Positions 585 to 18,319 of a stretch of 64,000 nt of DNA are shown in pieces (positions within the stretch are counted from its first letter, which is position 1; every line of letters begins with the position of its first letter). The position numbers and the translations under genes are program-made. The stretch lies in assembly GCF_902652985.1 (NCBI RefSeq), contig NC_047023.1, forward strand, positions 5,518,001-5,582,000, in the 5' to 3' direction. This stretch comes from Pecten maximus (Eukaryota). The notes under the pieces were generated by a model. That model saw nothing but the letters and a program-made list of their open reading frames with translations. It ran no database searches and had not been told where the DNA came from.

Positions 585-3500
585 GTAAGGTGGTTTGATT
601 TTGACATTGAGAATACAAGGCGTTATACGATACGACACCGGTCATTAGTCCACTTCAGACTCGTTGCCAAGCTTGGGGCTTTTCCTTTTGGACATGAAAT
701 TACATGTACGTGCAACTTGTGAGCATACTTTGTTTTACAATTTTAGTCTCCCATCGTATGTTTATATTTTGAATGCTTAAATGTGTTTCCTTTTCATTTA
801 TGTCGTATGACATCATTCACAGCTGCAACAGGACACATGCAATTTGTATCATCGATATTTATAGCATGTAGTTGATGTACCTGGTACAGTAGACTTGTAC
901 AAGCCCCAGACTGAATTTTGGCTGGCTGGCATAAATAGACTTTTTTTTTTTTGTTAAGAATTGCTCATCTAAATTATAATACTAGCTTGAAACTCTAGAA
1001 TCAGACATGTCTTAGAGACCGATATCATAAAGGCCAATCTTGTAATTTTATTAGTTTAGAGACACTGAGACAGGGTCATACTAGAAAGAATATCCATACC
1101 CTGTCTACACTTCTCTCCAGCAGACAACACACTACCATCTGTCTGAAATTGTCCATCGTCCTGATCTATCGCAGCTAACCTTAGGGTCATGGCATCATAT
1201 GGACCATCAGCTGCCAATCTTAAATCAATTATTTGACATGATTTCACAAATTGAATGAATGGATCATAGGCCTATTAGACTGACTAAGTTTGAATTTAGG
1301 AAGTACAAATTCAACCAATAATAAACCATAAAAATAAAATCAACTGTGATGGCAGTGAATAGAATACTGATGGACAATAACTGTCAATTACTGAATAAAA
1401 AAATATGGAAAATCATTTAAATGACAACTTAAAAAAAAAATCATGTGAATCCTAAATAACAGATATTGAAGATCTTTGAGTTCACAAAAAACCATGATCA
1501 CGAAGATTCCACATCTGCTTTTTTTCAGAATGAATGTTAAAAACTTTATTCTATTTTTTCAATGACTTGTACCACAGACACACAGAATGCTATAAATGTA
1601 ATTAGTTACTTATCCTTTGTTATGTATAATGGTAATTACTGGTCTGGGAACTGTGGTAAGGGCGATAACTCCCAACTTGCAGTTTGGAGGTTTGTTGAAC
1701 TCTTTTGTGTTTAGAGGAAAAGAAATAGAGAGAAGGCGATTGTTGAGAGAAAACGAAACACGTGTTACGAGTGTTTTTTTTGATTTTTAAAAGATAATAT
1801 TGAGCTAATTCCCCGGACAAACACTACATGGTGGAGAATTCGAATTGAAAAGAAGGTTTGTGAGTTTTAGCGCGATATGTGACGGATTGTTATGAGTAAG
1901 TGTGTTTTATTTAGCGATTCTCGATTTGCTGGTGCTCATTTGGACGAGTTAACATTGCGAGTATCAAGGGGGTCAACACTTCGAGACCACATAGGTTTAC
2001 TTAGGAACTTCGACCACACCAATTATAAGCTCTATATATTTTGTGTTGGTATCAATGACATCCCTGATGATATAGCTAACTATATTGACCAATGTAAAAC
2101 TAATCTATATGAAAGTCTTGTTTCTACAATTTTGAACATCGAACAACACGTTCAAAATAAAATTCCATCGGCTTTAATACTTTTCGGCACCGTTCCACCA
2201 AAAGATATCAGACGTACAGTTGCCAAATATCCTTCTAAATCACGCTTGACTCTTGCTGAAGTATGTCCAAGATATCAGCAACACTTTGAGGACTTTTTAA
2301 TGGGGCTGAATGACTTCATATCAAATTTCAATACCGCACACACTGGAGTACATTTAGGCCTTCACACTGACCTTCGGATCCATATATCACGTGGCCGCAT
2401 ATCTAGGTTTTCATACTTTAAATTGCATGATGGCCTACATCCACGACAAAGTTTACTTTCTGTGTGGCAGCGCAAAGTTTTGTTTGTATATCATGAACTT
2501 GTCCAATAAAAACTGCTGATTTTGAGTCGAAAGCCCACCGGCCGACTATATCAACGTACAAACTCTACTTGTCTTTTCATTTGCATATTTACTGACCTTA
2601 GTCACATGGTTTTGTTGTTGAAAGCCCACCGGCCGACACAAAATTGTGATATATATGAATTTGTATAGTATACTCAGGCCTACAGTTTGTGTGTGTATAT
2701 AATTGTATGACAAATATTATAAAAGTCACATGTTTTGTTGAAAGCCCACCGGCCGACATACATGTGTGTGTTTCATTGGCTGCATATTATTAATTGCATT
2801 TATTGTCTCGAAATTAACCTGCAGAGTGAAAACTTTCAAATTTTGTTTGATATAAATGTGTTCACTATTTTAAATCTTGAAAGCCTACCGGCCAACATCT
2901 GTGAACTATTCTTCCAAGGATGAAAAACAGAGGTGAAATTTGTAAAATAACTGGTCACATGTCATGAATAGCCTTACACCTCCATTAATTTACAATGTGG
3001 AAAATGAATATGATAGTGATTCGGACATTCTTGATGACAATTTTTTAAAAACAAATCAACTTTTTGAGGACTCATTCAAATTTGAAAATGATAGTTCTTC
3101 ATGTTCCATTATAATATAATGGTAATTACTGGTCTGGGAACTGTGGTAAGGGCGATAACTCCCAACTTGCAGTTTGGAGGTTTGTTGAACTCTTTTGTGT
3201 TTAGAGGAAAAGAAATAGAGAGAAGGCGATTGTTGAGAGAAAACGAAACACGTGTTACGAGTGTTTTTTTTGATTTTTAAAAGATAATATTGAGCTAATT
3301 CCCCGGACAAACACTACACCTTATATTGACCCAAACATCTGCCTATAATAGGAATCCGAGAGTAAGTTGTCAATGATATTGACAGTAGATTGTTAAAAAA
3401 TTGTCTTTCATGTATCAAGATTGCCAAAACTATGATGTGTGTTGATAGTATAGTGATCATGATCATGTTATCATATCATGCTGGATAATTCATTTATAAA

Positions 3501-6500
3501 CCTATGTTCATGGTAAAAGTAGACTAGAGTATAAGGTCATCATACTATAGCTCAAGCTACAAATGTAGCGAGAGTTTTCCTTCAGCTTTCTGTTTTGCGT
3601 CCATAAACAATTTACATTTTCGGCTTCTTCACAGCAACCTCTGAACCAATTTAAATAGAACTTAACAAAAACTTTTCATGGCCAAAAATTTAACAAAATT
3701 GTAAAATCATGACCCTGGAATCTCACGTTTGCTCCTTGGGAGGGAATAAACTTGATATCGTTTATAAATTAGGGAAATCACATTTTTGACTATCATTTTT
3801 ATTTCTGTTGGAATTTCTAATTCTAAATTGGTTTGAATTAGCAGGTTTTGTGGTATATGTTATATTGCCCCTGACTGACACACATGGGGCTGATGGGTGG
3901 GGCTAACAATTACCCTAACAAGGACATGGAGGAATTAAATGTGCAATATTTAGGGTCAATTTAGCTAATTTAATTCTCCTGTAAGATGAATTGCAGGAAG
4001 TTTTCCAAATTTTCTGTATCAACAATTAAAATGGAACTACATACAAATGTTATATCAATATCCCCTTTTACCAACTGGTGAAAGCTACAAGACCCAGAGC
4101 CTCACTTAATTTTTTTTTTTTTCAAACTAGGATATCTTACTATACACATTTCTGTTGGGTATGCAGAAAGTGTTGGTTTAATATTGATCAGGACAGTTAT
4201 TTTACATATATATATAATAATATATATATATATGCTATATAATGTTTTTGTGTGTCATTGTTGTACTTTGTCTTAGCTATTGTAGGTTGAGTCATGACAT
4301 ACAAATTACATTATCATTTTTTTTTTTTACAGATTAACAAAGGAAAAGTTTTCATATGAAAAAGAGGCTATAATGCTAGAAAAAAAAGTAGAGAAGATGG
4401 CAGCTGATGGGAAGGATGAATATGATATCAGGAAACAGGTACATTGATACAAGGTCCACCTTAGTGATATGAAGTATTTATTTAGCTATAAAACAATTTT
4501 TAGAACTTCTGACCCAAAGATGACAAAGTGCTGTTATTTTTCAGCCTCGTAAAATTTTGAACTATTCATTAACTTATCTATTAACAGCCACGACGGCCAT
4601 TTTGTAACATGATTGTGAAATCATGGTTTTCTTGAACAACACCTATTTTTTAAAGTTATATTAAGGATAGAAAATTGAAAGATTTTAATTTTAGAATGTG
4701 ACCATTTTGTACTGATTTTGAGTAATTTCTAAAAATTTCGTGAAGAAATATGTTTTTTTTTCTCTCTCGCGATGCATTCTGTTAGGTATGTGTACCTTTC
4801 TGGCAACAGCTATGGAGGTGACATCTTTAAAAATTAATAGTTTTCTAGATATATATATATGTACATGTATATGGTAAAATCCTCTCAGTACATAGGTTTT
4901 ATTATGATTTTAGCCCTATATTTAACAAAGTACATAGTTTTTATTATGATTTTAGCCCTATATTTAACAAAGTACATAGTTTTTATTATGATTTTAGCCC
5001 TTATATTTAACAAAGTACATAGTTTTTATTATGATTTTCGCCCTATATTTAACAAAGTACATACTTTTTATTATGATTTTAGCCCTATATTTAACAAAGT
5101 ACATACTTTTTATTATGATTTTAGCCCTATATTTAACAGAGTACATAGTTTTTATTATGATTTTAGCCCTATACTTAACAGAGTACATACTTTTTATTAT
5201 GATTTTAGCCCTTTATTTAACAGAGTACATAGTTTTTATTATGATTTTAGCCCTTTATTTAACACAGAGTACATAGTTTTTATTATGATTTTAGCCATAT
5301 ATTTAACAGAGTACATAGTTTTTATTATGATTTTAGCCCTATATTTAACAGAGTACATAGTTTTTATTATGATTTTAGCCCTATATTTTACAGAGTACAT
5401 AGTTTTTATTATGATTTTAGCCCTATATTTAACAGAGTACATAGTTTTTATTATGATTTTAGCCCTATATTTAACAGAGTACATAGTTTTTATTATGATT
5501 TTAGCCCTTTATTTAACAGAGTACATAGTTTTTATTATGATTTTAGCCCTTTATTTAACACAGAGTACATACTTTTTATTATGATTTTAGCCCTATATTT
5601 AACAAAGTACATAGTTTTTATTATGATTTTAGCCCTATATTTAACAGAGTACATAGTTTTTATTATGATTTTAGCCCTATATTTAACAGAGTACATAGTT
5701 TTTATTATGATTTTAGCCCTATATTTTACAGAGTACATAGTTTTTATTATGATTTTAGCCCTATATTTAACAGAGTACATAGTTTTTATTATGATTTTAG
5801 CCCTTTATTTAACAGAGTACATGGTTTTTATTATGATTTTAGCCCTTTATTTAACAGAGTACATAGTTTTTATTATGATTTTAGCCCTATATTTAACAGA
5901 GTACATAGTTTTTATTATGATTTTAGCCCTTTATTTAACAGTTCTTAGCTTACCTGGATACATGAGTTACAACTGCTATCATATGTATAATTGTGTAACA
6001 ACATCTTGCTTGGTTTTTCAATGAAGAAAAACTGCACTTTCTAGAAAGGACTATATTGTCAAAATGTCTTTACTTACAGAAGGAAGTTTTGGAAGAAAGC
6101 CAGAAAATGGTTCCAGATACACAGAGGAGATTGAAAAAGGGTTTAGAAGATTTAGAATCCTACATGGTAACTATATGACAGGATATGATAGAAAATATAG
6201 GATTTAAGTAATTAATGAAAATTTGAATTTCTGATAAACTACTCCTATATATCACAGCTGTATATTCATCACAAAGTGGTCAGTGAAGTGTTATCTAGTT
6301 GGTGTAGGGGTGGCATGGGGTATACTGGAATCAAGTTGTCTGTCCATCTGTCTGTCTGTAGACACAACAATATACATACTACATATGTACATACTCTTCC
6401 AAAACTATTGAGGGAATTTCAATGAAGCTTGCTGGCAATATTCCTTATACATTTTGTTTCCCTTCAATAACTTCAGTAATTTTTAACAGATTAGTTTAGA

Positions 6501-17776: not shown

Positions 17777-18319
17777 TATGGTGGCATGGATCTGCCATCA
17801 CATAACGAGATAATTTTGTCAACATAGCGAGATAAATATACCATATAGCGAGATAATAAAACGACATAGCGAGATAAAACAACCGACATAGCGAGATCAT
17901 TTAATGCGTTTACGAAGTCGCTCTCTCGACATCTCGCCGCATTAGATGCTACTACTGACATGGATTTTTTTCTTGTCAACGTCACGTGAACTCCATTCGG
18001 AAGTTCAGCGCGCCAGTGCACACGAGGCTTGGACAGGAAAGCTGAACGGCCCAACACCTACAACAAACAGGTAAACTAAGTAAAGCATATTGGATACCTA
18101 TGGCGCGCTGAACTTCCGAATGGGGGTCACGTGACGTTGACAAGAAAAAAAGTCCATGTCAGTAGTAGCATCTAATGCGGCAAGATGTCGAGAAAGCGAC
18201 TTCATAAACGCATTAAATTATCTCGCTATGTTGGTTTTATTATCTCGCTATATGGTATATTTGTCTCGCTATAATGACAAAATTATCTCGTTATGTGATG
18301 GCAGATCCATGTCACCATA
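17777..18319. mobile_element. Foldback-like non-autonomous DNA transposon, IS3EU-type termini
   Basis: TIRs of ~220-240 bp with internal ATAGCGAGATA repeats and an ~85-bp spacer; TAT..ATA termini; exact 6-bp TSD GTTTCT (17771-17776, 18320-18325). Confidence 0.85.

Follow-up and report, generated by a model that had tools for sequence, protein, structure and literature searches.

Why should the end of a long terminal repeat (LTR) carry the complement of the 5′ end of a tRNA, when the primer-binding site (PBS) that follows it is complementary to the 3′ end of the same tRNA? The question is raised by a retrotransposon in a 64,000-nucleotide stretch of Pecten maximus DNA, referred to here as the window. 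A 15-mer at positions 1800–1814 of the forward strand, repeated at 3290–3304, is the exact complement of nucleotides 1–15 of the host tRNA-Ala(AGC), and its first copy lies 14 nt upstream of the PBS, as a first-pass annotation had claimed. We call this 15-mer the box. What kind of element carries it? Is the match peculiar to this copy, or is it found in other elements that use the same primer? Which part of the tRNA is matched, and in which form? What might the box do? We consider these issues in turn.

The element and its box

The window copy occupies positions 1618–3318 of the forward strand between 4-bp target-site duplications (TSDs) at 1614–1617 and 3319–3322. The insertion is polymorphic. 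Contigs of four runs were examined and those of runs X2 and X3 contain an empty site that joins 1613 to 3319, with four letters in common. The 5′ LTR (1618–1828) is 211 bp long, beginning with TG and ending with CA. The 3′ LTR (3115–3318) lacks the first 7 nt and is otherwise identical, which indicates that this deleted copy is very young. The deletion extends from early gag to 7 nt inside the 3′ LTR; a 5′ remnant of gag (2946–3114) is left, and the remaining gag, pol and the purine run (PPT), which a full-length copy has upstream of its 3′ LTR, are gone. Full-length relatives measure 8.4–8.6 kb and have 211-bp LTRs, an SGNH-like ORF, gag and a pol that by Pfam has the order PR-RT-RH-IN, an arrangement that identifies the element as Ty3/gypsy. 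The 4-bp TSDs and 211-bp LTRs are common to the window copy and seven full-length copies, and the closest named reverse transcriptase (RT) relatives of the family are from bivalves.

Between the PBS and gag is an open frame of 208 amino acids (1883–2509) that resembles SGNH/GDSL proteins, with a Pfam Lipase_GDSL match (E value 0.0042) that falls short of the curated cut-off. Sister families have such an ORF at the same place (loci L060–L097, L213, L237 and L247; 63, 55, 55 and 38% identity), and weak relatives of 21–30% identity are found behind Lys PBSs. GDSL ORFs have been described in LTR elements of rotifers, as ORF3, and in non-LTR elements, where their position is gag-like. Four direct repeats of about 22 nt, spaced 91–139 nt apart, are present in the spacer between the SGNH ORF and gag (2527–2898). 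Elsewhere the window contains two long tandem arrays of approximately 29-nt units, at about 4890–5940 and from about 56600, and an inverted-repeat element at 17777–18319.

The PBS (1829–1842) is the complement of tRNA-Ala nucleotides 76–63. In the window copy it comprises 11 matches, a G·U pair at 1840 and two further matches, whilst in most family copies it is 14 nt. The spacer between box and PBS (1815–1828) would be the template copied before RT reached G1 of the tRNA itself. The first-pass annotation had described the start of tRNA-Ala and let its claim stand or fall by it; the host tRNA-Ala(AGC) genes identified with ARAGORN do start with the complement of the box, and they end with the complement of the PBS. 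Exact matches to the 15-mer number 44 in the genome, 22 at tRNA-Ala(AGC)-type places and 22 in LTR copies of the family to which the window element belongs; the reversed pattern, used as a control, has no exact match in the genome. Shuffles of the window lead to an expectation of 0.08 matches with two or fewer mismatches, and none yielded two.

Within the family two of the 15 box columns are variable as against 31 of 196 in the rest of the LTR, a comparison of low power in which the box is conserved no better than its surroundings. A single box variant is common to several family copies (4/24) and retains a G·U pair.

The poly(A) signal is likely at 1720–1725, where 20 of 24 other copies have the canonical hexamer and the window copy one change. 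The location of this hexamer, 109 nt before the PBS, suggests that the box is in U5, in which case genomic RNA would carry it at the 5′ end alone.

Recurrence of boxes and the parts of the tRNA that they match

A search for an LTR-end CA followed by an Ala PBS identified 217 genome sites compared to 8 for controls, and clusters were drawn from 100 of the 217. Pooling 56 newly fetched regions with loci from an ORF search gave 30 Ala-PBS clusters. Eighteen have independent element evidence, five have weak evidence, six are likely chance and one (L068, a copy without an LTR end) was dropped. The last 60 nt before each PBS were compared with tRNA-Ala nucleotides 1–18 using shuffles as the null, and z < −1.65 was taken as a pass. 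Twelve of the 18 clusters pass (mean z −2.46); so do one of the five weak and one of the six likely chance clusters left out of the sample. When the same 18 are set against seven other host tRNAs between 0 and 3 pass, and the windows flanking the 60 nt, upstream and downstream, each give a single pass in 18 against the tRNA-Ala 5′ end.

Control clusters were defined by PBS motifs, not each a confirmed element and with one Leu cluster a tandem repeat, and against the tRNA-Ala 5′ end they pass in 2/20 (Lys-CTT), 0/7 (Lys-TTT) and 1/18 (Leu) cases, 3/45 overall. Against their own tRNAs the numbers are 1/20, 0/7 and 0/18, respectively. The Fisher p value for 12/18 versus 2/20 is 5 × 10⁻⁴, which, like the other Fisher values, is too small since related clusters are counted separately and are not independent. 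The prediction that the motif would be kept in diverged families with an Ala PBS and not with other PBS types is borne out: among the elements tested the box is specific to those primed by tRNA-Ala, and it is widespread among them.

Two diverged families are of particular value. The RT of L137 shares about 60% identity with that of the window family and the sole blastn match between the LTRs is the 12-nt box, which matches at 12/12 positions and is separated from the PBS by the same 14 nt. L164 has all 15 box bases, split by a 7-nt insert. In an RT tree, from which L240 was omitted as too short, a branch with support of 98/100 separates both from the window family. Across families the box and the PBS are separated by anything between 7 and about 39 nt.

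Six of the 18 clusters fail the test. One of them is the autonomous L203, near whose PBS no antisense helix to tRNA-Ala reaches 6 bp. The Leu-PBS clusters have equally short PBSs (12–14 nt) and no box, so a short PBS does not require a box and the idea that it does is weakened. L126, a further LTR relative at 74%, seems to be the window family LTR in a read of poor quality and was left out.

Several other loci are worth recording. Loci L128–L165 and L198–L216 include many non-autonomous Ala-PBS elements of 0.9–3.5 kb, with paired LTRs of 190–250 bp and no gag/pol match. In the LTR of L144 the tRNA-Ala 3′ end is reproduced exactly at two places, one of them within a hairpin, and both are therefore complementary to the PBS of that element. 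L003, L005, L006 and L012 are tRNA-Ala genes with tandem partial duplications of the 5′ half upstream. At L038, L085, L223 and L350 there are tRNA-Thr-like sequences and Lys-PBS elements with short LTRs, which look similar to Helenus TRIMs.

The matches are not confined to the tRNA 5′ end. A helix of at least 7 bp to tRNA-Ala 26–48 is found in 9 of the 18 clusters; the null from 300 shuffles has a mean of 1.4 and does not exceed 6. No helix of that length to nucleotides 49–62 is found in any of the 18. Coverage of the tRNA by the 18 U5 segments is accordingly uneven, with 10–12 at nucleotides 1–6, mostly 5–8 at 27–43, 0–1 at 16–26 and 0 at 49–58. In five clusters a C is placed opposite A34; a T, the complement of the gene-encoded base, does not occur there in the same heptamer in any of 23 clusters examined, with T at helix ends in two. 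Eukaryotes convert A34 to inosine by deamination (PMC10275265). RT reads inosine as though it were G, and m1I37 is a further modification of tRNA-Ala (PMC4446420). The C opposite I34 suggests that anticodon-arm boxes match the mature tRNA-Ala, whether via selection or via RT copying, if the modifications are those of other eukaryotes. The anticodon-arm boxes of L128, L144, L145, L146, L160 and L201 are one base short opposite tRNA position 37/38, where eukaryotic tRNA-Ala has m1I37.

A metagenome scan for a 5′ box with a PBS, and thus selected on the 5′ box, gave 25 loci in nine groups, reduced to eight by removal of L264, a bacterial tRNA tandem. Two of the eight have gag behind the PBS and one has a paired LTR; the others are known by the motif alone. 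Upstream of the searched motif five of the eight show further tRNA-Ala helices of at least 7 bp (null 0.57), and one of the eight does so for tRNA-Lys. L257 contains a near-colinear antisense stretch of tRNA-Ala nucleotides 33–1. In L262 (about 1075–1122) two 156-bp LTR stretches are separated only by some 36–40 nt of antisense tRNA-Ala that continues the PBS and ends near nucleotides 38–41, close to the m1I37 site; this is likely a read-through product, judging from the arrangement. Long read-through PBS copies were also sought in the host genome and one, a 19-nt PBS (L313), was found. Among viral contigs 36 matches to the PBS pattern look like chance by eye.

Proposed role and alternative explanations

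We consider it probable, on the complementarity described, that the 15-mer serves as a second primer contact beside the 14-nt PBS, the two constituting a multi-part site that captures the released 5′ strand of tRNA-Ala. The PBS would take the tRNA 3′ end first, and the 5′ acceptor strand thereby released would be bound by the box along with half of the D stem. A single tRNA would then be held at both ends, with A76 at 1829 facing G1 at 1814 across the 14-nt gap. The first-pass annotation envisaged a two-part site for both acceptor strands and the D arm; a two-part site is supported, which would take the 5′ acceptor strand and the 5′ side of the D arm. The 14-bp PBS helix is calculated at −25.4 kcal/mol with a cost of 11.1 for opening the tRNA, and the box helix adds −25.0 kcal/mol for 4.2 of extra opening, before the costs of opening the box–leader stem and closing the loop. 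In this arrangement the acceptor stem would be prevented from re-closing and ejecting a short PBS, the selection or packaging of tRNA-Ala(IGC) might be tighter, and RT would have to displace the 5′ end of its own primer after 14 nt, creating a pause or checkpoint. Shorter 5′ boxes, anticodon-arm boxes or a combination of the two likely fulfil this role in sister families. The predicted tRNA-free folds, which differ among nine families, count against the two-ended hold in one respect. In the window family the box is mostly paired with, and so buried in, a leader stem involving 1867–1878, a pairing also predicted for L137 and not general.

How did the boxes arise? They probably originated when RT read through and copied the primer, and were then retained by selection. 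The same origin leads to the first alternative, that the boxes are a neutral footprint, produced when RT repeatedly reads through the primer and the fragments land in U5 by template switching, with no function. Read-through capture does happen, as L262 demonstrates with its LTR, PBS plus antisense tRNA-Ala, LTR arrangement; L257 is near colinear with the tRNA and L160 retains colinear spacing. A C is the base that RT would place opposite I34; the inosine signature would thus arise from copying of a mature tRNA even if the boxes had no function. A run-off copy would likewise end at G1. However, read-through copies the T arm first, yet that is where coverage in the 18 U5 segments is nil, nucleotides 16–26 are almost as bare and the 5′ terminus is covered best. 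Moreover the order of boxes is permuted in several families, perfect boxes persist where the LTRs no longer align, and Lys- and Leu-primed elements have none. The biased coverage, permuted order and persistence favour retention by selection. Against selection are the families without a box, the box-less Leu elements with PBSs just as short, the variable gaps and the uninformative comparison within the family. On this balance we regard a purely neutral origin as unlikely.

A second alternative accepts a function but not the same partner. The box might bind a tRNA-Ala other than the 5′ end of the priming molecule, for example a second tRNA, a bridge between two genomic RNAs, 5′ tRNA halves or a pre-tRNA, in packaging or regulation. 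The same complementarity data speak for this, and the L257 box spans the entire tRNA 5′ half. There are also precedents: tRNA bridging is shown for Drosophila Gypsy and proposed for Ty3, and in flies silencing is recruited by a PBS-bound pre-tRNA. The 5′ boxes, however, keep within their short range of the PBS and do not appear in the flanking windows, as expected for one tRNA bound in cis, a sequence that was purely a silencing target would tend to be lost, and no second tRNA site is seen near the PPT of a full-length copy. We judge this explanation improbable.

Could U5 pair with the PBS itself when the tRNA is absent? Such an intramolecular hairpin switch, raised in the first-pass annotation, would make the tRNA match a by-product of acceptor-stem symmetry. 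In L135 the box is indeed predicted to pair with the PBS, at 6.7 of 9 bp. The tRNA-Ala cloverleaf has a G3·U70 wobble, with the consequence that the complement of the tRNA 5′ strand and the complement of the PBS differ at one position, and there the boxes fit the tRNA and mismatch the PBS: 14 of 18 Ala clusters carry the anti-5′-strand pentamer (0/20 Lys clusters) and 2 of 18 the anti-PBS pentamer. The box–PBS duplex in the window family is worth −4.9 kcal/mol, with fewer than one base pair expected, and the expectation is 0–1.1 bp in eight of nine folds. The pentamer bias and the weak duplex leave the switch unsupported. It would not, in any case, explain the match to tRNA nucleotides 8–15, and we hold it to be very unlikely.

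Those same nucleotides overlap the A box of Pol III promoters. The box might then be, as in Helenus, a fragment of a tRNA-derived promoter located on the minus strand, and bivalves do have Helenus TRIMs. Against this there is no B box, coverage of tRNA 49–58 being zero, the conserved part is nucleotides 1–7, which are outside the promoter, and the box matches the isotype of the element's own primer and occurs in autonomous elements. The available text on Helenus describes tRNA-like parts without complementarity to the PBS, and gives no Ala primer for the bivalve members (PMC10886601). We find this explanation scarcely credible. Chance is rejected as the source of the box, the probability of an exact 15-mer within 60 nt of the PBS being about 8 × 10⁻⁹ at the LTR base composition.

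The second primer contact remains the explanation that we prefer. A wider proposal, which we put forward only tentatively and on sequence grounds, is that in a marine-animal clade of Ala-primed gypsy elements U5 may be built from RT-made antisense pieces of the mature primer, inosine included. These pieces might be used as a modular, padlock-like clamp on both primer ends from which minus-strand synthesis must peel the tRNA, and the clamp could be refreshed from the tRNA.

Why might this matter? What is known of extended primer–template contacts comes from a small number of model elements, and their importance in HIV is still debated. The Ala-primed clade offers natural variants of one contact, namely helices of 15, 12, 9 or 7 bp, a split form, a shift to the anticodon arm and complete absence, and this series makes a role of the contact in primer choice and in the switch from initiation to elongation testable. 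It also points to a way in which primer copies could give rise to cis-elements, and may tie replication to the I34 modification of tRNA.

Comparison with known systems

We found no description of a 5′-end box in Ala-primed gypsy elements in the literature searched, which excluded most subscription journals and Repbase. Besides the sources cited below, the comparison draws on PMC3185550, PMC11181671, PMC3159445, PMC4139406, PMC6934838, PMC5408684 and PMC13537249. The box does not belong to the Helenus, Ty3 or Ty1 types.

Helenus, or TRIMp3 (Kojima 2024, PMC10886601), also has tRNA-related sequence inside the LTRs of bivalve elements and a 4-bp TSD. Its tRNA-like LTR parts are a probable Pol III promoter that keeps the A and B boxes, and it is described as non-autonomous, less than about 1.3 kb, and without complementarity to the PBS. 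The window family, in contrast, is approximately 8.5 kb with gag and pol, neither short nor non-coding, and A plus B boxes of the Helenus type are not retained in the U5 segments, as judged by coverage over the 18 clusters.

Ty3 and Drosophila Gypsy share with the window element both membership of Ty3/gypsy and a second tRNA site. In Drosophila Gypsy that site is at the 3′ end and binds the anticodon and T stems (PMC1635307). The second sites of Ty3 and Gypsy are at the far 3′ end, bridging the genome ends, whereas the box here adjoins the PBS. In one full-length copy the sole antisense match of at least 8 nt after position 6229 is the 3′ LTR box, which would lie beyond the predicted poly(A) site.

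The multipartite PBS of Ty1 is similar in that nearby boxes supplement the PBS, and in Ty1 they aid primer packaging and initiation. The first-pass annotation had cited Ty1 and Ty3 as established cases of extended primer contacts. Such contacts do exist, but in both elements they target the T and D arms, and in the Ty1 complex the 5′ end of tRNAi-Met is unpaired, free to mediate dimerization (PMC4974528, PMC5371799). The Ty1 boxes are 3′ of the PBS, in GAG. Those of the Ala elements are mostly 5′ of the PBS and target the tRNA 5′ end and the anticodon arm, never the T arm; in the 18 clusters T-arm coverage upstream is zero and the downstream window is not enriched for the tRNA 5′ end.

A closer analogy is provided by feline immunodeficiency virus (FIV), in which the 5′ end of tRNA-Lys3 pairs with a U5 stem-loop (reviewed in PMC3230847; also PMC5371799). 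Here too the sequence that precedes the PBS is complementary to nucleotides at the primer 5′ end. In FIV, a lentivirus, there is a single contact, located in a stem-loop. The window family differs in being a gypsy retrotransposon primed by tRNA-Ala, with a PBS of 11–14 nt and a perfect 15-bp box that reaches into the D arm, and the Ala-PBS clade differs in having alternative boxes distributed over many families. Miller et al. (2001), who described the FIV pairing, reportedly also observed that RT pauses 14 nt before the end of U5 is left behind the PBS. By analogy the box most likely works like the FIV 5′-end contact, and the complementarity described would then extend a contact of this type to retrotransposons.
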